A stretch of 64,000 nt of DNA from the IMG/VR virus record IMGVR_UViG_3300048833_000100, positions 9,896 through 73,895 of that record; one strand, written 5' to 3'. Under the pieces are notes generated by a model, which had not been told where the DNA came from, ran no database searches, and was given only the letters and a program-made list of their open reading frames with translations. Below are positions 1,557 through 44,088 of the stretch, one piece after another (position 1 is the first letter of the stretch; each line of letters starts with the position of its first letter). Made by a program: the position numbers and the translations under genes. The stretch comes from a virus.

Positions 1557-4500
1557 CTAGTCGAAGATTGCAGCGACCGGGTGGTTGAACGGGGCATCGA
1601 AGCCCATGGCCGGGCCGAACGAATAGGGCAGCCGTCCATCGAGAGTCGAGCCAAGGAAAGACCCATCCCAGGTGGTGGAAATCCCCGAGGCCGGGCCAAC
1701 ACCCCCCATCATGAACAGCGAGGTGAGCGGCCGGTCCCGCAGGGTCCGGGCCGCGATCTTCATGATCCTGAGCTTGTAGCTCCAGAACCACTGCAGACCC
1801 ATGGTCTCCCGGAAATCCCGTCCCCGGCCCGGCAGACGGTTATACTGCACGAACTCTTCCCGGATCTGGTCGAGAGCATCCTCAGGCTTCATGCCCTTCT
1901 TCTTGGTCAGGTGATCATAGAGCACCGCCTTGGCCACGAAGTCTCCATACTGAACCATCCGGTTCAACCCCTGGAACAGGGCCGAGTCCTTGGTGATCAG
2001 CAGGTTCTTGGCCGTGCCTTGAGCCCAGTCCGGCATCCGGTTTGCGACCCGCTCCAGATACTCCCCCCACTTGCCTTCCCGGATGGCCACATCGGCTTCA
2101 GTCAGGCTTTCGGAGATCGTCGAGAACTCACCGCTCTCGATCAGGGGTGCCACAGAGAGCTTGGCATTGGCTCGATCCAGAACTGCGATCCGTGCCTGCA
2201 GGGCATCCCGACGGGTCGGGTTATTGATCACAGCCGCCATCTCGATCTGCAACCGCTGGATCTCTTCCCGGTTCTTCACATAGGTCGAGATCTCCGAGAA
2301 CTTGTCCCGCATCCCGGTCGCAATGGCGATCGGGCTCACACCCACCATCGAGAGGTGGTAGATGTTGGACAAGATGTTCTGGTAGCCCACCACGATCGAG
2401 CGGACGATGATCGTGGTCTTGGCGAAGGATACCACGGACTCGACCGTATTCTCGAAGGTCTTGAGCTTGCGGAAGGCATGCACCCCAAGAAGACGTTCAG
2501 CCGTCTTCTGGATATTCTGCTGGGTTTTTTCATTCCAGCGGGAGATCCCGGTCCAGGCATCCGTCGTCGAGGCACGTCGGAAACCAATCGCATCCTCGAC
2601 CTGATCCCGTTTCACCCACAGCTCGTCTTTACCGAAGACCTCATGGGCGTGCTGCTTCATCTTCCAGCCCATGGTTCCCCAGGCATCCCGAACCACAGGA
2701 TCCTTTTGGTTCGGGTCCGCGACGTTGATGAACTCGGAGACATCGCCCTTGGCTCGAGCTGCATCATAGGTCTCTTTCAGCACCTCGAGCAGCGCGACGT
2801 TGTTGGCATCCGCCACATTCTCTTCGACGATCCGACCCATCCACACCCCGAGCATCCGTCCGAGGTGATCATCCATCGGCATGGCTTCGGTATGGGCAGG
2901 ATCCATGGGGCGCTGGTGCCCGGCGATCTTGCCCTCCTTGTCGAAGATCGGCAGCAGGTAGTCTCCGGCAGGCAGGTTGTCGAGAGACCCTGGACGTGCC
3001 CGGCCGACCGAGAGCGCAATATCGGCGCTGTCATAGTCGGCAATCAGGCCAGCCGTCTGACCCGGCAGACGCTGGCCGGTATGGGCATCCACACCCATCC
3101 AAGTCTCGTGAACCGTCTGAGCCACCCCCTGACGGAAGGCAGTCTTGCCTGCCACCGTGGAGCGATAGTAGCCCCGCTTCGGCTGACGACCTTCGTTCTT
3201 GTCTCCGACATAATCCCCGACACGGGTGAACCCCCGCTTCAGGAGATTTGCTTGTTGGTCATCCTCGAAGACCATCAAGGCGGCACCTTCCTGCATCAGC
3301 CGTGGGATATACCCCTTCAGACCGTTGTTCTGCGCCACCTGGTTCAGAGCCCCGTCCCTGGTGATCCGCTTCATCTCCAGGGTTCGGGTGCCATTCAGGA
3401 AGCCGGTCAGGGTCTGCATCCCATCAGCCTCGTCCTTGGCCAGATCAGCCAGGGCCTTCTGCGTATCGGCATCGAGCTCGGCAAAGGCATAGAGGCTGGT
3501 CAGCTGGTCAATGGCAGTCACCAGATCTTCCGAGACGGGAGCCACACCCTTGGGTTTGTTCTCCCCGAACAGATGCGCGATGGCATGGGCGTTGGGCAGC
3601 AGGTTCTGCGAGGTCACCTTGCCAGACACCATATAGACGGCCAGTGCCTTGGCCTTGGCGATCTGCCGGGCCGATACAGCACCCCCCAGACCCATGACGG
3701 CTTCTTCGGCATCCGCGATCTTCTGATCCAAAGAACCCAGGTTCCGAAGCAGATCCAACGTCTCGGCATGACCAAGTGCCAGGAGATCCGTGCGAGCCAG
3801 TCCCTTGTGCAGCTGGCTCCACTCCGCACTCGTCAGCGGCCGGGAAAACTTCTTGGCGAGGTTCACCGGAACCCCCTCCCGGAAGTCTTGGCGCAGGGCG
3901 TCAATCTTCGACTTGGCCTTGTTGATCAGACGCAGCAGCCCGATGTTGTCCTTGGTCTGTCCACGGAGATCCGACAGGATCGACCGCAGCTCGTGTTTCC
4001 CTTCGATCCGGTTCAGGAAATAGGTGGCATTGTCCATGTTTTCCTCGGTGCGATCCGGGGATCCCAGAGAGGTCACCAGAGAGGTGACATAGGCCGCCTG
4101 CCCCAGGACGGAGCCTTTGCGCTGCTTGGCCGCATTGACCAGCTTGATCGTTGCCTTGGTCGACTTGTCCTCAACCTGTGATGCCAGCCAGCTGTTGGCC
4201 TGTTCGATCTTCTCGTTCATGGTCTCCAGCCCGGCCATCAGCCGGCGCTTGCCCTGCACCGTGGTCAGAGTCAGGGCGAGCTTCTCCATCTCCTGCCGCA
4301 GGTTGGGCTCCATCTTGCGCGGGTGGATCGACAGACGGGTGATCAGGTTCACCAGAGTGGAACCAATCGACCGGAGGAAATCATCCACCGAGTCCCACTT
4401 CAGATCGGCGATCTTGGGAGCCTCGATCTTCTCCAGCACTTCCCGGAACCCGTCATTGGTCAGGGCCAGGGCTGTGAACACCGCCAGCTGGTCATTCCGG

Positions 4501-7500
4501 TTCGGGGTCTGTTTCTTGATCCCGTCTGCCCCGGCAAGGTGATCCCACATCGCCTCGGCCAGGGATGCACTCACCCCAGGCAGCTTGGTGAAGTCCTGGG
4601 GGGTCACCACCCGCAGCACATGGTCGAAGGCTTCCTGCAGATGCCGATGGATCGGCTTGTCCGCTCGCATGCCTGCCTGCACCGACGCATAGACAGCCTC
4701 GAAGGCCCGTGCCTCCCGAGCGGTCACATTGAAGCCTGCAGCCGCTGCCCGTTCCCGAGCCTTACCAGCCGTGCTCAGACTGTCTGCAACGGCCGTCTGT
4801 GCCTTGGTGGCAGCCTCTGCTTCCGTGATCTTCCCCGCGGCCAGCAGATCATTGACATTGCCCATGCGCTCCAGCCAGAGCCGCATACGACCAAGGAACA
4901 TCTCCTCGACCTCCTGCAGCCTGTCCGAAGCAGGGAAGCTCTGGTCCAGCACCTGATTGACCTGTGCATCTGCACGGGCCACCTCGACAGCTTTTGAGGG
5001 CGCCACCAGCAGGGTTGCGTTGAACTGCAGGTTCGACAGCAACGTGTTGCCGGGGTGGAACCCCACCAGCTTCTTGAAGGCATTGATTGCTCGAGCCACC
5101 CAGGAGATCAGGGGACGGTAGGTCTTGGTCGCCTCGAGCTTCTCCGAGAGCTTCTGGTTCGACAGTGCATAGGAGATCAGCTCGGAGATCTGGGCAGCCG
5201 GATTGCCTTTCTGGGCATGCAGCACCGCATGCAGCTGAGACATGGCGCCTGCACTGGCCCCTTCCGGGACCATCTTCAGGATGTCATCCCGCAGGGCTTC
5301 CAGCTCCTTGACGGCATGGCGGACATGCTCCGGCACCGATCTGGGATCGTCGTAGAAATCGACCAGCCGCTTCATCGTGTGGATGTGGAGCATCTCGTGG
5401 ATCAGAACTTCCGGGGCTGCATGAGCCACGAAGACAACCTGCTTGCCGGCCGAGCTCTGCCCATACTGGATCTGCCCATTGGACTGGTTCAGCCCCTTGG
5501 TCAGTTCCGGGTAGAGGGTATTCCGCACCTGCTCCAGCGCCTTGTTGGAGCCGAAGTAGTAGACCACGTCTTCCGACAGGGGAGCTACTTTCCGCATCCC
5601 CTGGATGGCCCGCAGCTGCTCTTCCGTGGTGTCGGTATCCGCCGTCAGGAGCTGCATCACTGCAGAGCCCTTGATCGAGACCACCCCCGGATGCCCATCA
5701 ACCTCCGTGCCCAATTCAGACACCTTGGCCCGGAACTCGGCACTGGGCTTCTGGGCATAGTCCTTCCGAGAGGCCCCGTCCTTGGCAGCCCTTGCCTGTG
5801 CCTGAAGAGCAGAGAGCTCTTCCCGGTAAAGCTGGTTCAGCTGGCTCGTGATCTCGTCATAGGCGATCGGGGAACCACCCGCCACCACAGTCCCTGGGGA
5901 GACGAAAGGTGCCTGTGCCGACGCCATGTGATCGGTCGAGGTTGCCATCCGTGCCATGGCCCGTTTCCGGGCCGTGCTTTGCATGGCCATCTCATCAAGC
6001 TCCCGCTGCATGTTCACGATGTCTGCGTGCTGCAGGGGCCGGTTACCAACCGTCTTGCGGAAATCCCGCATCGTCTTGTTCAAGGCGTCCTTGGTGTCTT
6101 TGCTCAGATTGGCAAAATCCTGATAGGTCAGGTTCTGGGTCATCTGCCGGAACCCGTCTGCAATCGCCTGATAGGGATTGCCCTCGATCCAGCCATTGTA
6201 GACTTGCTCGTTGATCTGTCGGGATGCCCCTTCGATCTTGTCGGCCGCCAGCTCCACCCCGTCAAAGACCGGGAGAGACATATCGAAATCCCCATTCCCA
6301 TCATGATAGATGTTCAGGATCATCCGACCATCGCCGGTCCCGATCGTCAGGAAGGCACTGACCTTCACCGAAGCATCGGCCGGGGTGACCAGCGTGGCAC
6401 GGGTCTCCATATTCCCGCTGAAGCTGCCACCCACCTTGTAGTCATGGCTTTGATCCCGATCGGGAGCCGCGATCTGGAAGCTCTGTGCATCGGTCCCATA
6501 GATCGGAGCGATCTTCATGCTCTCGGCATAGATGTCCCGCATCCGCTCTTCCGACAACAGACGACGGCCAGGCTTTGGGGTCCATTCCCCGGTGGCACCA
6601 TTGGAGCCTTTCCGTTTGGCTTCCAGTTCCGCTTCAGCCTTCTGGGCTGCATCCTCTTCAGCCTGTGCCTCTTTCAGCTTCCGCAGGAACACATCCCGGA
6701 AGATCAGGGCCTGGACCTGAGATGCCCGTTGTGTGGTTCGCATATGGCTCCCGAGACCCCCCGTGGTCTCGTCGATCGCATCAAACATCGGCTGAGCAAA
6801 ATGGATCTCGATGTTCTTGGCCAGGGTATCGAACATGCGCCCAGACACCGTGGACTCGACCGGGTTGCTAAACCAGTCGTGCATCTCACGACGGGACAGA
6901 CCCATGACTGCCATGAGGTCTTGAACCATCTGATACTCATTGGCCTTCAGGGCATCGAAGTTCCGGTAACCATTTCCTTGCCGAGAGATCTCCGTGAGCA
7001 TCTTGGAGAGCTGTTTCGTCACCACCCCCGCGATTTTATTGGACACGCCATTGACGCCGGAACCATAGAGGAACACGGTCAGTGGGTTCTTCACCGTGTT
7101 GCGGCCGATCCCCACACCCTCCAGCCGACCATCCTCCCCATGCTCCAGTTCGATCTGCAGGAACGCGGGGTCGTTGAACTTCTCAAGGACCCGCAGCACT
7201 GAATGAAGCCGTTCCTGAGAGAAGCCTTCTGGCACATCATCAACCTGCCCATGCACAAGATCGTGCATGCGGGCCTCGAGCCGGTGGGCCGCCATATGAT
7301 AGAGGTCGGTGCGGTTTTCTGCCCGCATCGCCACGAAGTTGTTCAGCGAGATCTCCACATCTGTGAAGAACAGCCCGCCTTTGGCAAACCGCTCGATCTG
7401 GGCTGCATCAAACTCACCCAGGCCCATGTGAACCATGGCATTGATGGGACCGTCTGTCTTGCCATCCGCCTCCAAGGCCAGTGCCGTCTCGAAGGCATTG

Positions 7501-10500
7501 CGGTTGCCCACGACATCCGCCACCTCGACCTGAGCTGCCACCATCAGGGCATGGATCTGTTTGGGGGTCAGTGGCCCGAGTTTTTTGGCAGCCACAGTCT
7601 CCATGAAGTCATTCACGTCGAAGGAGTCTTCGACAATGCCTTCTGCCAGCAGATCAATCAGGGGGGCATATTTGCCCGTCACCAGATCCTGGGCACTCTC
7701 GATCGAATCCTGCACCGATTTCTGTTCGACCTTGACGCCAAGGGACTGGGCAATGGCCAACCAGAGAGCTTCCTCGTGTTTGGCGTTGTCGAGATCCAAT
7801 GTCGAATGGGTTGAGGAGATCATCTCGCGGGCAATCTTGGAGCCCTGTGGGGTCACTGGCCCGGATTGCTGGAGACGCCCCACCGCAGAGACAGCCCACT
7901 CGAAGAAGATCGGCATGTCCCAGATACCATCCTGGGTCTCCGCCACCTGACTGACTTCGTCGATGTAGCCCTGCACCGCGGCCAGATCATGCTCGATCGT
8001 ATTGTTCTTCCCATCAATCGCATCGAGGTGATCGACGTTATAGGTCTTCCGGTCCGCCTCGGAGATCTCCTGGAATCCCAGGAGCGTCTTCACATTCTCA
8101 TCCCCAAGGGCCTGGAAGAAATTGACCATCGGTTTCACCAACCGATTGGGGGTCTCCTGCAGACGCTTCACAACCTTGCGCTCCTGCCTGGACAGCTCCG
8201 CCAGTCGGTTGCCCAGCTGGGTCCGAGCCACTGTCTTCAGTGGCTTGCCGATCAGGCGATCCTTCACACGACCTTGGGTGAGGATATTGGTGAAAGGGGA
8301 CCGCATCTTGACCAGAACCTCGAAGTCCCGATCCAGCAACTGATCGACATGGGGCTCCAGCATGATGAAGTCCCGTGTCACATCCCCGACGGTGACATGC
8401 ACCTTCCGCCAACCAATCCGGCCACGCCCCTCCTCCGGCTTGCCAGCTTTGGTATCCATGAGCAATTCAAGCGACGTGGCTGCCAGAGAACGGAACATCC
8501 CCTGCGTCTGCCGGATCGTCTTCTCATCTCGAGGAGACACATCCAGAAGGACCATCATCTTGTTGGCGATCTGCTCCACAGCTGATTGCTGCGGATGGCC
8601 ATAACGCACTGCCTTTGTCACATTGCCTGGCAGGGACGTGCCTCGAGGCAGTCCCAGGATCTTGGCCATGGCTTCCTCGTCCCGTGGACGCTGCGGCCCA
8701 GTGCTGGCCAGCAGCCATTCATAGACGGCAGCGAAGGCTGCGAACTTCACCTGCTCCGGGAACTCCCGGACCGAGCCTTCTTTCAGGAGGTTCAGGGGGA
8801 GACCGTCACTGGTATTGAGCCATGCGCTGATGGCCTCGCCTTGCAGGTTCCACCCTTTGATGAACTCCTGGGCTGCATTGTCCAGCTCGGCCGAGAACTC
8901 GGTGAAGTTCATCTCCATCACGTTGTCGATGGCATCCCGTTGCTCTTCGGTCACGTCCTCGGACGATCGCACATAGTCCTCAAAGAACTTGTGGGCATCC
9001 TCGATGCCCGGCAACAGGGAGCCGTGCTTCCTTGGCTTGAAGGCATCGAGGAAGACATTGACGCCCTTCATGGGGATCACGAGGATATTTTTCAGGCTCT
9101 CGAACCACCGAACGACGGGGGCATCCTCTACCGGAGCAGCTTCACTGGAGATCTCTTCGATGTCCTGATCGACCGCGGTCTCGGTGGTTTCCTCCTGCTC
9201 TGACCGAGCAGCATCGGCCTCAGCTTCCAGGAACTCCTGACGCTCTGCCTGTGCGATGGCCTCGTCCCCAAAAACCAGGGGAGTGCCGGCAGCTTCAGAC
9301 ACGATGGCGTCGATCAAACCCTGCTGCTCAAAATACCCGGAGCTGTCATCGACTGGGAGAACCCACGCCAGATCGGGATGCTCCCGTGCCGGGATATTAT
9401 CGAGATCGGTGTAGCCGGTTTTGCGGAACAGGCCGGGCGTTGTTCTGGGGGTCACCCCATTATGGCGAAGCTCTCGTGCCACTGGGCCATGCGGAGCAAT
9501 GCCCCCGATGCGAGCCATGTAAGCCGTGAATGGTCGCTTCTGCACCTTTGGCTCACGAGCCGCAGCTGCCTTGGCTCTACGCTCGGCCGCCAGACGCTTC
9601 TTCTCCGCAGCCCGCACTGCCTTCTTCTCTTCCCGTTCCTTGGCCTTGGCTGCCTTTGCTGCAGCCTTCTCCGCAGCCTTGGCCTCAGCCTCTTCTTTGG
9701 TGGTCTTGGCCTGTGCTGCCCGCTCTGCCTTGCGCTCTGCGACCTTCCGGTTCACGGCATCAATCAGCGGATCCATCATCGGATCAGCCTTGGGCTCGAC
9801 AGGCTCTTGTGCCTTGGGGGCATCAGGAACCGGCTTGGCCAGATCCCCTCGCAGCGTGAGCTTCTTGTGCATGTTGGGGACCGAGACAGCTTTCATCTCG
9901 GTCAGTCCATGGGTCTGGATCAGCTGCTTCAGGAGGTCCGCTGCCGCTGTCGCGTCCGCATGGACCTCCTGAGCCAGAGCCACTGAGTTGGGGTTGGTCA
10001 GATCGACCCAGACACCATCCTTGGCTTCCTTGGCATAGAAGCCATAGACCCCCTTGGCGACGAAGGGGACCTTGTGAGACTTGCCCTTGCCGACGGCAGC
10101 CGACTCGTTGAAGGCCTTCATCTTGTTCGACTGGCTCAAGGCGAAGTTCCTGAGATCGGTCAGAGCCCGCATGGCCACATCCCGGTGACCAACCCGCATG
10201 GCGTCATTCACCCGCTTGTAGTGGCCGGACAGGGACAGGGAGGTAACCTCTTCCCCGTTGCGGACGGTATCCATGCCGGTATGGAAGATCTCCTTCCGAA
10301 CCTCATCCTTGGTCTTGGGAGGTTGGGTTCCAGGCTGGGACCAGATCTTGGCCTTCTGGGCATCGAGCTTCTCGAGGGTGGCAAAGATCTTGGCCGCCGC
10401 ACTGAGGTGTTTCCGACGCTCGGCCGTTACGGGGCTCTGCCCCTCCACCGGGCCGAGCTGGTTCAGGACCGTGTCATAGGTTTCCTTGGACAGCAGGGCC

Positions 10501-36245: not shown

Positions 36246-36268
36246 CACGGCCTGTAGGCCGTGTTGGA
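36246..36268 (+). promoter_or_regulatory. vRNAP hairpin promoter P1
   Basis: cacggcc-tgta-ggccgtg then ttGG. Confidence 0.75.
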
Positions 36269-38976: not shown

Positions 38977-39011
38977 GCCCTATCCCTTCGGGGGTAGGGC
39001 ATCCCTTTTTT
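38977..39011 (+). terminator. Rho-independent terminator
   Basis: gccctatccc-ttcg-ggggtagggc followed by atccctttttt. Confidence 0.8.
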
Positions 39012-39077
39012 CCATCCCCTTCCTGACCCGGCACTCGGGATAGTCATTCTACCCTCGATAGTCCGGTTGGCGTTGCT

Positions 39078-39099
39078 CCGGCCTGTGGGCCGGTTGGGT
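39078..39099 (+). promoter_or_regulatory. vRNAP hairpin promoter P5
   Basis: ccggcc-tgtg-ggccgg then ttgGG; upstream of RNAP1. Confidence 0.7.
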
Positions 39100-39240
39100 G
39101 GTTGGCGTGGCTCTGGCCATGTCTGTCACCTAAGGACGCCCTAAAGACGGTCCTCACTCATGACCCTCGACTGTCCTAAAGGACCAGACCTTGGAAAGAT
39201 CCAGGGTCTGTCCTGAACCATGCCCAGAAGGGAGAGACCC

Positions 39241-40134
39241 ATGAAAGACTTCGATCGGGACTACGATACCCTCGAGATTACCGACCTGTTGCCCGAGCTC
39301 GCAGAGCTCGAAGACATCAATACCGAGACCTCCACTCAGATCGAGCTGGAGAAGCTCCACTGCAAGTATCAGCAGATCCCGGCCATGCGGGAGGACTTCG
39401 CACGGGACCTCACCGGGACCATCGAGGCGACCGGACTGCCTATGGCTTTCTGCCTGCAGCTCCTCGTCCAGATGGCCCTACACCGCACCGCGGATGTTTC
39501 GACCATGGTCGGCATCCTGCGGCCGCACTTCGAGGACAAGGAGAAGCCGGCACAGGCCTGTGCCGATGCCATCTGGGAAGCCTGCGGCCACGACCTCCTC
39601 GACTATGACGACGAACGTCAGAAGCTCGTCATGGCCTATGATGTGGACGATGAGACCCATCGGATGATCGAGCAGTTCATGTATCCACTGCCCATGGTCG
39701 AACCTCCTGCAGAGGTGAAGACCAACCGGCACACCGGCTACAAGACCATCAAGGGCTCCATCATCCTCAAGCACAACCACATCGAGGAAGATGTCTGCCT
39801 CGACCACATCAACCGGATGAACGCCCAGGAACTCAGGCTGAACACCAAGATCGTCTCGATCATGCAGAACAGCTGGGCGAACCTGGACAAGCGCCAGGAG
39901 GACGAGACCGTGGTCGAGTTCCGGGCACGGCAGAAGGCCTTCAAGAAGTTCGACCGCACCTCACGGGATGTTATCGACCTCGTGTCGATGCAGTCCGAGA
40001 AGTTCTGGCTGACCCACAAATACGACAAGCGCGGGCGGACCTACGCCCAAGGCTACCACATCAACTACCAATCCGGTGACTGGCACAAAGCCATGATTGA
40101 GTTTTACCGGACAGAGCAGTTGAAAGAGGCATGA
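39241..40134 (+). CDS. RNA polymerase II subunit 1 (N4 gp15-like)
   Basis: YPLPMVEPP, DVCLDHINRMN and FWLTHKYDKRGRTYAQGYHIN motifs. Confidence 0.95.
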   Translation: MKDFDRDYDTLEITDLLPELAELEDINTETSTQIELEKLHCKYQQIPAMREDFARDLTGTIEATGLPMAFCLQLLVQMALHRTADVSTMVGILRPHFEDKEKPAQACADAIWEACGHDLLDYDDERQKLVMAYDVDDETHRMIEQFMYPLPMVEPPAEVKTNRHTGYKTIKGSIILKHNHIEEDVCLDHINRMNAQELRLNTKIVSIMQNSWANLDKRQEDETVVEFRARQKAFKKFDRTSRDVIDLVSMQSEKFWLTHKYDKRGRTYAQGYHINYQSGDWHKAMIEFYRTEQLKEA

Positions 40135-40800
40135 TACCCTGTTAGGGTAAATATACCCCTACAAGGAATCCAACATGAAGATCTGCAAAGACTGTGGTGA
40201 GTCCCTACCACTCACCGCATTTCGGCCCAAGCCGTCCAACAAGGATGGCTTGGAGCCACGCTGCAAAGCCTGTCGAAACATACGATACAACAAGGCAGAC
40301 CCACACAGGGTCTTCCGCAAAATCTACAACAGTCAGCTGCTCAATTCAGTAGGTCGGGGGCATCCGCCACCGGCATACACCTATGAAGAGCTCATTGCTT
40401 GGGCAGACCGACAGCCACAACTCTGGGAGCTTTGGCATGCCTATGTGGCATCAGGATACCAAAAGGAGTTGAAGCCGAGCTGCGATCGTCTGGACAACAA
40501 CCGCCCATACGAGCTCGACAACCTCGAGATCGTGACCTGGGAGGAAAACCGGGCAAGGGCAGCCAGGGACAAAGCAGCCAACACCCTACTGGTGAACCAC
40601 CGCCCAGTAGCCGCATACAATCTCGATGGCTCCAAACATAGAGAATACCCATCCATCACAGAAGCCATGAGAGAAGTCTCAGGGAATATGTGGGGCATCT
40701 CCTCTGTGGCCAATGGAGTGCCAGTCAGAGATGGGCGCGGCCACCTCTACACACCCAGAACCTATAAAGGATTCATTTGGAAATGGATCTGAACATCAAC
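40066..40800 (+). mobile_element. Homing endonuclease cassette carrying a replacement RNAP1 3' end
   Basis: 735-bp insert bounded by ACATCAAC direct repeats (40058-65 and 40793-800). Confidence 0.75.
40175..40792 (+). CDS. HNH-like homing endonuclease with Zn finger and NUMOD1-like domain
   Basis: CKDC...CKAC; PSCDRLDNNRPYELDNLEIVTWEEN; C-terminal EYPSITEAMRE...TYKGFIWKW. Confidence 0.85.
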   Translation: MKICKDCGESLPLTAFRPKPSNKDGLEPRCKACRNIRYNKADPHRVFRKIYNSQLLNSVGRGHPPPAYTYEELIAWADRQPQLWELWHAYVASGYQKELKPSCDRLDNNRPYELDNLEIVTWEENRARAARDKAANTLLVNHRPVAAYNLDGSKHREYPSITEAMREVSGNMWGISSVANGVPVRDGRGHLYTPRTYKGFIWKWI

Positions 40801-40869
40801 CCGCAGGGGAACGACTGGCAGAAGGCCATGATCGAGTTCTTCCATGCTGAACCTCTGAAGGAGATTTGA
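40793..40869 (+). pseudogene. Orphaned second copy of the RNAP1 3' end
   Basis: Encodes INPQGNDWQKAMIEFFHAEPLKEI*, co-linear with the expressed INYQSGDWHKAMIEFYRTEQLKEA*. Confidence 0.85.
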
Positions 40870-40872
40870 ACC

Positions 40873-41151
40873 ATGGGAGATCATGGAGACGACCTTTGGG
40901 ACATCGCTTTCGAGGATAACCTGGCACAGCATAACGATGTCTGGCCCGAGGACTATGTTCCCAAGACCTGGACCACCAACGAAGGCAGGATCCTGCTCCT
41001 CACGGAGATGACAACCAGCCACATCTTCAACTGCATCGAATGGCTCAAGAGACGGCCGTTCCCTGACAAGCCAAAGATCAAGCAGATGATCGCAGCCTTC
41101 GATGCGGAGCTGGAACGGCGCCAAACCGAAGCCCAATCACGGGAGGAGTGA
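40873..41151 (+). CDS. Hypothetical protein
   Basis: WTTNEGRILLLTEMTTSHIFNCI, a motif common in small phage proteins. Confidence 0.7.
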   Translation: MGDHGDDLWDIAFEDNLAQHNDVWPEDYVPKTWTTNEGRILLLTEMTTSHIFNCIEWLKRRPFPDKPKIKQMIAAFDAELERRQTEAQSREE

Positions 41152-41154
41152 ACC

Positions 41155-41472
41155 ATGGGGAAACGATCCGAGATGCTCCGGTTGGAGCTGAACCTGACTG
41201 CCCAGAAGCTGAAGGTGGCTGATGCCTCCAGGATGTCGACCTACTGGGCTACAACCAATCAGGTGGCCGACCTCCTGAAGCGCAACTTCACCGCCAGCGG
41301 TATGGTTCTCCACGTCACCGATCTGACCGGGAAAACCCTCATCAATCCCGTGATGATCTCCGACGGGCTCAGTGAGGCAACCCTGCGAGCCATCCATGCC
41401 GACATCGTCCGTAGCTACGACTTGGCGGCATCGTTCGGTCCCATCAAACCCCTCGATCCACCGAAGGAGTGA
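41155..41472 (+). CDS. Hypothetical protein conserved in N4-like phages
   Basis: ASGMVLHVTDLTGK..INPVMISDGLSEATLRAI..DIVRSY resembles the N4 gp14-type family. Confidence 0.7.
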   Translation: MGKRSEMLRLELNLTAQKLKVADASRMSTYWATTNQVADLLKRNFTASGMVLHVTDLTGKTLINPVMISDGLSEATLRAIHADIVRSYDLAASFGPIKPLDPPKE

Positions 41473-41475
41473 GCC

Positions 41476-41850
41476 ATGACACGAATCTCCAAATCCCACG
41501 CTGCTACAGCCCATGCTGTCTATGGGGGGATAAAGAAGCTCAATCTTTCGGATGAGAAGAAACGGATCTGGGCAGAGGCCTTTGACCGGATGATGAACCC
41601 GCCACCAGTGGAGGGGGAAATCATCGGCCGAAGCCCTGCGGAGATCTGGTTCAACGATGAGCTCGCCAAACCCGGCAGCTTCCACATCAAGAGCTTCGAC
41701 TTCGGGTCACCGCCCTGGTCTCAGGAGCGCATCACTCCGGTCGACACCACCCCTGACTGGAAACATCCCATCCCAACCAATCGGGCAGGGAATACCCCAT
41801 CTCTCGAGGCCCGCCTCAAGGCTCGAGCCAAGCGCAAGAAACGGAAGTGA
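41476..41850 (+). CDS. Hypothetical protein
   Basis: Operonic ORF with a basic C-terminus. Confidence 0.6.
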   Translation: MTRISKSHAATAHAVYGGIKKLNLSDEKKRIWAEAFDRMMNPPPVEGEIIGRSPAEIWFNDELAKPGSFHIKSFDFGSPPWSQERITPVDTTPDWKHPIPTNRAGNTPSLEARLKARAKRKKRK

Positions 41851-41854
41851 CATC

Positions 41855-42070
41855 ATGAGACTGGACACACCAGAACGGGCCAACCTGTTCGGATCGGCAC
41901 AACGGGCTCACAAACATCTCGGTGTGCTCTTCCAGAACCCGATGGAGCTGGACAAGGACATCATCCAGGAAGAGATCTCCATCGCGGAGAGCTACCGGGA
42001 TCAAGAGATGGCCCGCTACAACAACTACATCACCAAGCTCAACGAGCTCAAAGCTCGCATCAAGGATTGA
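41855..42070 (+). CDS. Hypothetical protein
   Basis: MRLDTPERANLF; operonic spacing. Confidence 0.6.
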   Translation: MRLDTPERANLFGSAQRAHKHLGVLFQNPMELDKDIIQEEISIAESYRDQEMARYNNYITKLNELKARIKD

Positions 42071-42074
42071 TCAC

Positions 42075-42254
42075 ATGATCGTCATCACCCTCGGCAATGG
42101 AGCCGAGTTCTACATCACCCAGGACAAGCGCATGGGCATCCGTCAGGTGACCAATGGCCAGATCACCAGTGATGTGGCTCTCGGCACTGCAACAGAGAAG
42201 CGGCTGGATACAATCCAACTGCACATGAACTCGCTCCGGCCTCATCTGGACTGA
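42075..42254 (+). CDS. Hypothetical protein
   Basis: SD aagga; MIVITLGNGAEF. Confidence 0.6.
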   Translation: MIVITLGNGAEFYITQDKRMGIRQVTNGQITSDVALGTATEKRLDTIQLHMNSLRPHLD

Positions 42255-42310
42255 GTTCTACCGAACCACAGCACAGCACACCAACTGCAGAACATACCAG
42301 GAGATACCCA

Positions 42311-43576
42311 ATGGCTTTCCAAGAGTTCACTCCGATCCAGTATCTGATGATCGACATCGCCAACAACGCTGGCCAAGACAAGGAAGACTGGGATCTCCGC
42401 CTGCAATGGTTCGAGATCCATGAGGCCCAGATCCGCGAGATCGCCGAGCTGGCCCAGACAGCGCCCAAATCCATCCCGAGCCACCCCCTGGTCAAATATG
42501 CCAAGGAGAACGGCGAGCCCTCGCTCTTCGTCGCAGGAATCCTCGCATGGGATGCTGCCCGTCAGGGCAAGGAGATCGGCTATCCAATCTCCCTCGATGC
42601 CACGGCCTCGGGTGCCCAGCTTCTGGCTCTCCTCGTGGAGTGCGAGAAATCGGCCCTGCTCTGCAACGTGATCGACTCGGGCAAGAGGGAGGACCTCTAC
42701 ACCAACGTCTATCACCTCATGCTGGGCCGCATGCCTGACCAGGCAATCTCGATCACCCGGCAGCAGGTCAAGGACGCTGTCATGCCCTCGTTCTATGGTT
42801 CACGGGAAGCCCCGATCCGCACCTTCGGAGAAGGGGAGCGGCTCCAGTGCTTCTACGATACCATGTCCCAGGACCTGCCTGGCCTCTGGGCTCTGAACAA
42901 CGCCCTGATCGAGCTCTGGAACCCCCGCACTCGAGCCCACAGCTGGGTGCTCCCCGACAACTTCCATGTCCGCACCAAGGTCATGGATGAGCGGGAAGAG
43001 CATGTCCAGTTCGCAGGCGCCCTGCATGTGGTGACCACCAAGGTGAACCGGCCGAAACCCTTCGGTCTGGACATCGCTGCCAACTCGATCCACTCGATCG
43101 ACGGCATGGTGGTCAGGGAGATGTCCCGTCGGTGCTCCTACAATCCCGACAAGATCGCAGCCCTGATCCGGCTGACCTCCGGTATCTCCCCGCACAGACC
43201 CAACCGCAACAGCCCGAACCACGACCTCGTGGAGACGCTGTGGCAGCACTATCTGGACTCTGGCTTCCTGTCGGCTCGTATCCTCGAGCTGCTGGATCCC
43301 CAGAACATCCACCTGGTCGATGCGGATGTCATCCGGGGCATGATCAAGACCCTGCCGGAGAAACCGTTCCCGATCCTCTCGGTCCACGACTGCTTCCGCT
43401 GCCACCCCAACTATGGCAACGACCTGCGCCGGCAATACAACCAGATCCTGCATGACATGGCTCAGTCCGATCTCCTGAGCTTCATCGTCAGCCAGATCTC
43501 GGGCACCCGCATGAAGGTCCATAAATACGGCAAGATCGCCGACCGGATCCTCGAGACGAACTACGCCCTCAGCTGA
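42311..43576 (+). CDS. RNA polymerase II subunit 2 (N4 gp16-like)
   Basis: ISLDATASGAQLL (motif A), RQQVKDAVMPSFYGS (B), ANSIHSIDG and SVHDCF (C). Confidence 0.96.
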   Translation: MAFQEFTPIQYLMIDIANNAGQDKEDWDLRLQWFEIHEAQIREIAELAQTAPKSIPSHPLVKYAKENGEPSLFVAGILAWDAARQGKEIGYPISLDATASGAQLLALLVECEKSALLCNVIDSGKREDLYTNVYHLMLGRMPDQAISITRQQVKDAVMPSFYGSREAPIRTFGEGERLQCFYDTMSQDLPGLWALNNALIELWNPRTRAHSWVLPDNFHVRTKVMDEREEHVQFAGALHVVTTKVNRPKPFGLDIAANSIHSIDGMVVREMSRRCSYNPDKIAALIRLTSGISPHRPNRNSPNHDLVETLWQHYLDSGFLSARILELLDPQNIHLVDADVIRGMIKTLPEKPFPILSVHDCFRCHPNYGNDLRRQYNQILHDMAQSDLLSFIVSQISGTRMKVHKYGKIADRILETNYALS

Positions 43577-43620
43577 TGCCTCGTTCCATCCCCATGTCCC
43601 TATAGGGATGGAACTACCTC

Positions 43621-43661
43621 GATGCCCCACCCGCTTCCGCGGTGTGGGGCATCTCTTTTTT
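43621..43661 (+). terminator. Rho-independent terminator
   Basis: gatgccccac...gtggggcatc followed by tctttttt. Confidence 0.8.
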
Positions 43662-43860
43662 CCCCCATATACCCACCAAGAAACAGCCTACTTCAGGACA
43701 GTCACGAAGACAGTCGCAGGTCCATCAATAGGGGCTACTGGAGGGAAGGACCTCATCCTATCGCCGATCCAGGAAGAGTCCAGAGCCAAACCACCAACCC
43801 GGTCAGGGTTGTTTTGTGGTTGTTGGCTCCAGCGACCAGCCCCGAACCATGGAGGTCACA

Positions 43861-44088
43861 ATGATCACCCACCTGCCGACCCGTCGCGTGACGGACCTGA
43901 AGATCCAGCACATCACGGCAGGACCCGGTGGTCCCGTGGTTGCCTCGAACCTCACCTACAAGATCGACGGGAAAAACAACTCAGCTCGGGTTCCCTGGGC
44001 TGCAGCCAGCCCGGCCGCCGAGATGCGCCGCATCGAGGAGGCATTGAAAAAACAGTCGGGGAGGGGTCCCAAAGACCCCGCGGCGTGA
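43861..44088 (+). CDS. Hypothetical protein
   Basis: SD ggagg. Confidence 0.55.
   Translation: MITHLPTRRVTDLKIQHITAGPGGPVVASNLTYKIDGKNNSARVPWAAASPAAEMRRIEEALKKQSGRGPKDPAA

Follow-up and report, generated by a model that had tools for sequence, protein, structure and literature searches.

How can an endonuclease gene lie at the 3′ end of an essential polymerase gene, and why does that gene appear to end twice? The question is raised by a 64,000-nucleotide (nt) stretch of viral DNA (the window; positions 9,896 to 73,895 of IMG/VR record IMGVR_UViG_3300048833_000100), which makes up most of a 73,895-bp metagenomic virus record. Gene content and similarity searches identified the virus as an N4-like phage (Schitoviridae) with 60% G+C. 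The gene concerned encodes RNAP1, the homologue of N4 gp15. RNAP1 is the smaller partner in the heterodimeric, T7-like RNA polymerase II (RNAP1/RNAP2), which N4 needs for middle transcription. We propose that this gene carries a homing element that replaces the 3′ end of its target. The proposed mobile unit is 735 bp long, consists of a replacement RNAP1 tail, a spacer and an HNH-type endonuclease gene, and would be placed after the codons for His-Ile-Asn and before a Y/P-Q-G-N-D motif. We consider this interpretation probable because of the anatomy of the locus, the lack of an intron or intein, the existence of insert-free alleles joined within 8-nt blocks, and the recurrence of the arrangement in other phages. 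The initial annotation, made from the sequence before any database search, had likewise suggested a splicing-free insertion into an essential gene that brings its own C-terminus, and the same lines of evidence support that suggestion.

The RNAP1 open reading frame (ORF) was found at 39220-40134 (the parts of the locus described here lie on the + strand), with its stop codon at 40132-40134, and ends in ..GYHIN-YQSGDWHKAMIEFYRTEQLKEA*. Its body (39220..40057) is native to the lineage, matching phrog_2166 'N4-like RNA polymerase' (1.9e-87) and the PDB 6dt7 chain 'RNAP1' (5.6e-70), and is 96-97% identical in nucleotide sequence to contigs of relatives. The insert has as its left edge one copy of an 8-bp repeat, ACATCAAC (40058..40065), read in the codons cAC-ATC-AAC as His-Ile-Asn. 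This is followed by tail 1 (40066..40134), the 22 codons and stop that form the current RNAP1 C-terminus and that appear to accompany the nuclease gene, as judged by third-position G+C content (GC3), divergence from the other tail and a match to the RNAP1 homologue P0002. A 40-nt spacer (40135..40174), which holds a hairpin and the ribosome-binding site of the nuclease gene (AAGGA), separates tail 1 from the nuclease gene itself (40175..40792, 205 aa). The right copy of ACATCAAC (40793..40800) abuts the nuclease stop codon TGA and leads into tail 2 (40801..40869), IN-PQGNDWQKAMIEFFHAEPLKEI*, again 22 codons and a stop, which is the displaced native end of RNAP1. The repeat copies at 40058 and 40793 are 735 nt, or 245 codons, apart, so that tail 2 lies in the RNAP1 frame, but it is detached from RNAP1. 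Deletion of either 40058-40792 or 40066-40800 would give a continuous RNAP1 frame. The spacer is the sole non-coding DNA of the insert, none being left after the nuclease ORF, and the nuclease gene, which is in a frame different from that of RNAP1, is preceded by an AAGGA and begins with an ATG of its own. Both structural claims of the initial annotation were thus recovered: an RNAP1 end, a nuclease gene and a second in-register end, with tails of 22 aa each, and a 735-bp insert bounded by direct repeats whose excision yields a continuous gene.

We then compared the two tails. As peptides they share 15 of 24 residues, Ile-Asn included, against 7 of 24 for the next best among about 128,000 six-frame windows, and the similarity first noticed therefore holds in alignment. 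Their composition differs as had been claimed, the downstream tail being rich in G+C at third positions and the upstream tail and the nuclease gene AT-richer. GC3 was 84% (238/282) in the RNAP1 body, and tail 2, at 77% (17/22), did not differ from it. Tail 1 had 64% (14/22; binomial p 0.014 against the body) and the nuclease gene 62% (127/205), likewise lower than the body (Fisher p 2.5e-8). Furthermore, tail 1 is 41% divergent in nucleotides from the native tail, whereas the body is only about 4% divergent from relatives.

Alignment of RNAP1 homologues, the check proposed for finding the native tail, pointed to tail 2. All eight other members of the RNAP1 90% cluster (88-96% identical) end FFH..PLKEI, as tail 2 does. 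In P0168 the working tail is like tail 2 throughout (YQGNDWQKAMIEFFHTVPLKEI); the seven other cluster members, including the 167-aa fragment P0163, have a hybrid tail made of a tail-1 start (YQ[SA]GDWHKAM.EF) and a tail-2 end, as in P0169 (YQSGDWHKAMIEF then FHAEPLKEI). Alone in this cluster, the window protein ends YRTEQLKEA and resembles the distant P0002 (82% identical RNAP1; ..YRTEQLNES), so that the last 9 residues of tail 1 match P0002 and not the close relatives. Across the family, the position after His-x-x is Y in 96 of 120 homologues and P in 16 of 120, followed by Q-G in 105, Q-S in 11 and Q-A in 2; Y or P with Q-[GSA] is therefore usual, and neither tail is odd. This result did not sustain the proposal that tail 1 arose by recoding of the native site (PQGN to YQSG). 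Since Y-Q-[GS] is the family norm and the tail matches P0002, tail 1 is better read as an imported foreign allele, not as a local copy or as a peculiar recoding of the native tail.

Alleles without the insert were found in nature. Logan contigs from three other runs, belonging to three metagenome studies, were compared with the window over 39300-41400. A 617-nt contig (X4, record 17) follows the window through 39602-40057 and continues at 40793-40954, omitting 735 nt, with the 8 nt of ACATCAAC common to both sides of the joint. This is an empty site, and tail 2 is the working tail in it; the 162 nt after the joint, downstream DNA included, show 11 letter differences and a 3-nt gap. A 1,438-nt contig (X3, record 14) and a 197-nt contig (X2, record 10) are joined elsewhere, from 40089 to 40825. 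Here too 735 nt are omitted, the common 8 nt being GCCATGAT, a block present in the window at 40090..40097 and again at 40825-40832, and the product is a hybrid tail with no nuclease gene. Thus GCCATGAT marks the crossover point of the natural hybrid-tail alleles. The X3 contig carries the same tail as P0169 and differs from the window at 31 of 790 nt before the joint, at none in 40058-40089 and at 1 of 54 after the joint. Among the three tail haplotypes, tail 1 and tail 2 each have a private part and the hybrid has none, indicating that the hybrid is the recombinant. The sole order seen, a tail-1 start followed by a tail-2 end, is that expected from pop-out between tandem tails or from repair annealing early in the tail. 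These two natural joint types fit the earlier suggestion that the original allele might be regained through recombination at the repeats, although loss of the element and a site never invaded would look alike. In the probable source run, a 9,927-nt contig covers the region with no difference from the window, and the insert-bearing contig was the only one across the site; as contigs drop rare variants, they are uninformative on excision there. The nuclease gene is presumed absent from the genomes of P0001, P0002 and P0165-P0170 on indirect grounds, namely the X2, X3 and X4 contigs and the lack of a close nuclease homologue.

The arrangement was not confined to this lineage. Single-protein scans of viral contigs gave no close RNAP1 relative and, for the nuclease, only pSb-1 and one partial match; scans with a nuclease alignment gave 3 viral and 12 metagenome loci (hereafter with L numbers), the viral profile scan adding one locus to those of the single-protein scans. 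In L010 and L016, RNAP1 with its tail, a spacer and the nuclease gene are followed by an intact second RNAP1 tail right after the nuclease stop (the L010 tails being STQATGFKKAMIEF.. and TTQGTGFKKASIEF..). L012 and L020 have the nuclease gene and then an intact RNAP1 tail, their upstream side ending at the contig edge. The second tails of the window, L010, L012, L016 and L020 begin 1-2 codons before the [YPT]-Q-G motif, and the pooled pN/pS (the ratio of the proportions of nonsynonymous and synonymous differences) of four tail pairs was 0.18. Possible decayed tail remnants in L014 (N-L-M-S-K-A) and L008 (..AACATCAAC..) were too weak to count. In the Gamaleyavirus group (pSb-1, HK2, G7C, L011 and L013) RNAP1 and RNAP2 flank the nuclease gene, and a remnant of a second tail is not clearly recognizable. 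When Gamaleyavirus genomes with the nuclease gene were aligned with PhAPEC7, which lacks it, nucleotide identity was 81-86% over the 105 nt before His-Ile-Asn and 55-68% in the tail, and blastn homology stopped at RNAP1 nt 758 and restarted at the end of the nuclease gene. The steep fall in identity, to differences of 35-45% in the tail against about 16% before it, together with the break in homology, indicates that in these phages too a private RNAP1 tail travels with the nuclease gene.

The nuclease gene also moves relative to RNAP1. RNAP1 is 94% identical and the nuclease 33% identical between pSb-1 and G7C; the corresponding values are 96% and 76% between pSb-1 and L011, and 25% and 46% between the window and L018. 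Moreover, the nuclease homologue P0123 (72%) is on the same 75,642-nt contig as the RNAP1 homologue P0028 (48% identical).

Several neighbouring arrangements were recorded during these comparisons. At the position that the nuclease gene has in pSb-1, HK2 and G7C, Escherichia phage PhAPEC7 (L022) has a 53-codon ORF, gp17 (2588-2749), which is not similar to the nuclease; the 57-nt leader before RNAP2 is the same in PhAPEC7 and in the nuclease-bearing phages. The RNAP1 homologue P0064 (359 aa; its contig is 70,487 nt long) reads on in frame beyond the place where the stop usually falls and enters an HNH motif of the endonuclease VII type (..HLHHDHNTG..CN..); a different nuclease is here fused to the same gene end. 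The annotation of Vibrio phage pVco-5 (L003) breaks RNAP2 into two pieces (3132-3581 and 4440-5228) with an 'endonuclease' between them (3723-4271), a candidate case of a second nuclease that either splits the polymerase or sits in an intron. In L017, within 998-2700, a member of the nuclease family (44% identical) is flanked by genes for an AAA ATPase (phrog_1297) and for a phrog_1314 protein. The ATPase gene's final four codons and stop (YLHD*) are found again at the nuclease gene's 3′ end, changed only synonymously, which looks like a miniature tail duplication at another target.

The observations at RNAP1 can be assembled into a putative homing cycle. RNAP1 would be translated through the imported tail 1 and so be kept whole, while the native tail would be stranded downstream. 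In a mixed infection the nuclease would cut or nick element-free RNAP1 alleles close to the junction, and repair would take both tail 1 and the nuclease gene from the genome that bears the element, the RNAP1 body providing homology on the left and the displaced tail on the right. The element-bearing allele would escape cutting through its different sequence 3′ of the junction. Recombination between the tails, or repair that ends early and then anneals within the tail, would produce nuclease-free alleles, with the native tail if the joint falls in ACATCAAC and with a hybrid tail if it falls in GCCATGAT. Immunity by a changed site is plausible from the tails themselves. Cassette-borne tails without the CARGG (Gln-Gly) sequence 3′ of the junction were found in the window and L016 (CAATCC), in L010 (CAGGCA) and in Gamaleyavirus (GCAGGT); displaced and empty tails retain CARGG, and the hybrid nuclease-free alleles carry exactly the changed segment. 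The anatomy of the locus, the foreign origin of tail 1, the natural empty and hybrid alleles, the recurrence and the mobility of the nuclease gene were observed; the parts of the cycle that we infer are the activity of the nuclease, its cut site and specificity, the immunity, the direction of each event and a role for the spacer hairpin that is taken up below.

What kind of enzyme would drive such a cycle? A protein search with the 205-aa product gave 42 homologues at E <= 1e-8, the closest with 74% identity. An alignment (A1) of 33 homologues (50-74% identical) and the window protein had 32 invariant columns, among them an N-terminal CxxC..CxxC and the segment P-S-x-D-R-x-D..N..N, and this degree of invariance across 34 sequences points to purifying selection on the nuclease family. 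PHROG families named endonuclease VII or HNH matched the protein, the best being phrog_1035 'endonuclease VII' (1.1e-23), and a sequence-profile search of the PDB with the nuclease family returned nothing. Its AlphaFold model (predicted local distance difference test score 88) had I-HmuI (1u3e) as the best Foldseek match (E 2e-4, probability 1.0). In VIA comparisons, residues 139-205 matched the I-HmuI DNA-binding domain (Z 7.3, root-mean-square deviation 2.2, 26% identity), residues 40-133 matched PacI (Z 6.7), and residues 1-39 matched the zinc ribbon of Hpy99I (Z 5.8). The predicted fold resembles that of an HNH-type, I-HmuI-like modular nuclease, with an N-terminal zinc ribbon (CxxC..CxxC), an HNH-like centre and an I-HmuI-like C-terminal DNA-binding domain. 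The initial label of an HNH/NUMOD1 gene survived in part: the HNH assignment is based on phrog_1035 and the fold matches to I-HmuI and PacI, whereas NUMOD1, the only Pfam match at E <= 0.1, fell below threshold, scoring 16.5 bits (E 0.01) where the cut-off is 22.8. In the source record this ORF had been called as a 115-aa fragment, P0140.

A number of findings weigh against a currently active homing element at RNAP1. Pfam gave no HNH family (HNH, HNH_3 and the like) for the nuclease at E <= 0.1, and all of the VIA matches are middling (Z 5.8-7.3, below 8). D104-R105 is invariant in 34 of 34 sequences at the position where an HNH histidine would be presumed, and the only invariant histidine is H63. 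The Asp-Arg pair stands at what we take to be the place of Asp-His in HNH_3-type enzymes and I-HmuI; with this pair invariant and no Pfam HNH match, the sequence is no guide to activity. Nor is the CARGG change shared by all, as L008, P0028 and P0089 retain Q-G. The empty X4 allele could be an ancestor that was never invaded as well as a revertant, and the hybrid allele could in principle be old. Finally, that P0001 and P0002 are without the nuclease gene is indirect, being judged from the lack of a homologue above 74% identity and of a contig-length match.

These points bear on an alternative that we consider improbable, namely that the locus is a fossil cassette, a former homing element whose protein is now inert or repurposed (with Asp-Arg for Asp-His) and no longer homes. 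The invariant D104-R105 and the missing Pfam HNH match are compatible with this, as is the fact that no homologue exceeds 74% identity, hence no very recent spread is visible. However, an arginine kept by 34 of 34 members, at the same site in very different phages, is a family trait and not decay, and other ββα-Me nucleases, such as PacI, are also without the canonical histidine. Presence and absence of the cassette is polymorphic among relatives that differ by about 4%, and near-identical Gamaleyaviruses carry nucleases of different lineages at one and the same site, which points to ongoing turnover.

A second alternative, which we rate as unlikely to the same degree, concerns tail 2 and holds that it is kept for a function of its own, either as a 28-codon mini-ORF that starts at an ATG formed from the nuclease Lys-Trp codons or as a leader and ribosome-binding site required by the gene that follows. 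Tail 2 has an intact frame to the homologous stop in the window, L010, L012, L016 and L020, five loci in all, and three of these (the window, L010 and L016) have an in-frame ATG ahead of it; this ATG is without a ribosome-binding site, however, and is missing from L012 and L020. The final codons of tail 2 contain AAGGAG (40858..40863), read from the sequence as the Shine-Dalgarno element for the next gene (ATG at 40873), and L010 (GAAGGAG) and L016 (GAGGGAG) have a Shine-Dalgarno element in the same place. The end of the old tail must therefore stay, but such a site constrains only about 5 codons. L014, L008, L018 and Gamaleyavirus have no remnant or doubtful decayed ones, and tail 2 is near the working tail of the X4 relative, which fits recent displacement.

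Less probable still is that an endonuclease gene of the usual free-standing kind landed in the spacer behind RNAP1 and that the second tail is an unrelated tandem duplication, made by slippage or by the assembly. Free-standing HNH genes between RNAP1 and RNAP2 are indeed common in N4-like phages (G7C, pSb-1, HK2 and pVco-5). The ACATCAAC 8-mer by itself is also not significant, since it occurs 3 times in the window (the third at 39806) where about 1 occurrence per strand is expected. The tails nevertheless do not look like a recent copy of each other. They are identical at 39 of 66 coding nt (59%) and different at 27 of 66 (41%), with a pN/pS of 0.25 and a Nei-Gojobori pS of about 1, a value inflated by two-fold sites that is to be read as 'near saturation' only. 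Of the 11 shared residues that have a choice of codon, 7 use different codons in the two tails. Near saturation at synonymous sites argues against a recent local duplication, and the 9,927-nt source-run contig speaks against an assembly artefact. Nor would an unrelated duplication predict that the order tail, nuclease, tail recurs in unrelated contigs, that natural alleles join exactly at the repeat blocks, or that tail 2 is the working tail in P0168 and the X4 contig.

Least credible of all is removal of the insert at the RNA or protein level, by a group I or group II intron or an intein, with RNAP1 made with tail 2: excision would restore the frame and HNH genes are frequent in phage introns, but Rfam gave no intron family (Intron_gpI, group II) at E <= 10 over 39000-44000, only chance-level matches, the insert has just 40 nt of non-coding DNA and none after the nuclease stop, the Pfam scan gave no Hint or intein family at the locus, the stop codon of tail 1 and the ribosome-binding site and ATG of the nuclease gene in another frame exclude an intein, and conservation of tail 1 as a protein would be pointless if it were spliced out. 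The earlier reading that no room for an intron core structure is evident was thus upheld.

The spacer of the proposed element folds into a hairpin with a minimum free energy of -13.2 kcal/mol (z -2.2), in which the AAGGA is partly paired. Homologous hairpins precede the nuclease gene in L008, L010, L012, L016 and L018 (z -2.1 to -3.5). RNAalifold on five spacers returned a consensus of only 4 bp, so the hairpin is supported by single-sequence folds and not by covariation. By analogy with the mobE gene of Aeromonas phage Aeh1, in which a hairpin reportedly masks the ribosome-binding site, the spacer hairpin may hold down translation of the nuclease. It is unlike the early-promoter hairpins of this phage (CGGCCTGTGGGCCG type). 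Hairpins of the early region, with the core CGGCCTG[TA]GGGCCG, were located at 36246, 36871, 37891, 38479 and 39078.

Downstream of tail 2, a 92-codon ORF (40873-41151) represents a gene-sized presence/absence difference. The contig of the X3 relative joins 40878 to 41161, omitting 282 nt; the ORFs at 40873 and 41155 both start ATGGGA, and the X3 joint falls in that common start. The sole match of the 40873-41151 ORF was phrog_16964, which carries no assigned function. The gene for the partner subunit RNAP2, the N4 gp16 homologue, lies outside the element at 42311..43576 (phrog_2051, 3.3e-143; Pfam RNA_pol, 1.6e-15). The position of the insert allows a speculation about this partnership, to which we give little credence: the two-subunit split of N4-type RNA polymerase II may stem from such a tail-carrying cassette in a single-chain T7-like polymerase gene. 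A cassette entering the Y/P-Q-G-N-D site would have ended the upstream part with a 22-codon tail and a stop, and the remainder would have become RNAP2. Three observations would fit: the insertion site precedes the split between RNAP1 and RNAP2 by exactly one tail length; on the single-chain profile phrog_414 the match to RNAP1 stops near position 425 and that to RNAP2 takes up again near position 429; and the Gamaleyavirus nuclease gene is precisely between the RNAP1 and RNAP2 genes.

If the homing interpretation is right, the natural series of element-bearing, empty and hybrid alleles from independent samples makes the homing cycle, and a possible arms race over Gln-Gly, testable. Cultured relatives with the nuclease gene (pSb-1, HK2 and G7C) and without it (PhAPEC7 and Moo19) make such tests feasible in E. 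coli. For annotation, stranded gene ends behind endonuclease genes would be footprints of elements, not assembly errors.

Homing elements are usually said to survive in genes by splicing, as introns or inteins. The window element differs from a group I intron in having no core RNA, and from an intein in the stop codon at 40132-40134 and a nuclease gene in another frame. Its nuclease, as modelled, shares the elongated modular build of I-HmuI from Bacillus phage SPO1 (PDB 1u3e). Unlike that enzyme it is not intron-encoded, and its family has an extra N-terminal zinc ribbon, closest to that of Hpy99I, and Asp-Arg in place of what is presumably the I-HmuI motif. Intronless homing is reportedly carried out in phages by free-standing nucleases such as the Seg and Mob proteins of T4 and the product of mobE, which lies inside nrdA of Aeh1; they are said to be encoded beside or within a conserved, essential gene and to spread during mixed infection, when repair of a double-strand break also converts the markers around it, their genes sitting between other genes or splitting a host gene into two working pieces. 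To our knowledge, elements of this type have not been described as bearing a duplicate, replacement end of their target. Literature searches, with subscription journals outside their range, found no phage precedent for a tail-replacing nuclease.

Replacement of the gene end is a third way for a homing element to survive in a gene; it has been noted in fungal mitochondria and so far worked out only for the WHO elements of yeasts. The mitochondrial cases are mobile endonuclease ORFs in Allomyces macrogynus atp6, Ophiostoma rps3 and Phlebia radiata cox2 (PMC4019555). As at RNAP1, an endonuclease lies near the gene's 3′ end, accompanied by an alternative C-terminal coding piece, and the former end has been moved downstream (PMC4019555). 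Their enzymes are LAGLIDADG or GIY-YIG proteins, organellar and often fused in frame or associated with introns, whereas the window nuclease gene is separate, in another frame, and has its own ribosome-binding site. WHO elements, which occur in Torulaspora and Lachancea, consist of an endonuclease gene and, upstream of it, a 3′ part of the host gene that confers resistance; the former 3′ part is displaced downstream, where it forms a fragment that has been proposed as repair homology, and allele-specific cleavage has been shown for WHO6 (Coughlan et al. 2020, eLife, PMC7282813; Osborne et al. 2026, bioRxiv 10.64898/2026.08.13.744650). The window element resembles them in its proposed repair steps, its independence from splicing, its essential host gene, the discordant histories of the 5′ and 3′ parts of that gene, and the order of its parts, with the nuclease gene directly downstream of a full-length host gene that has a diverged 3′ variant and a displaced 3′ fragment beyond. 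It is not a member of the WHO family, as its PHROG, Pfam and fold matches are to HNH-type nucleases; its nuclease is HNH/I-HmuI-like, and that of WHO elements is an intein-derived LAGLIDADG zinc-finger protein related to HO. The scale differs as well: in the phage a single element replaces 22 codons, and on yeast chromosomes half a gene is replaced and elements form clusters of up to nine. The RNAP1 locus would represent the same way of survival in a bacteriophage, reached with an unrelated HNH-type nuclease at a conserved motif of an essential RNA polymerase subunit.

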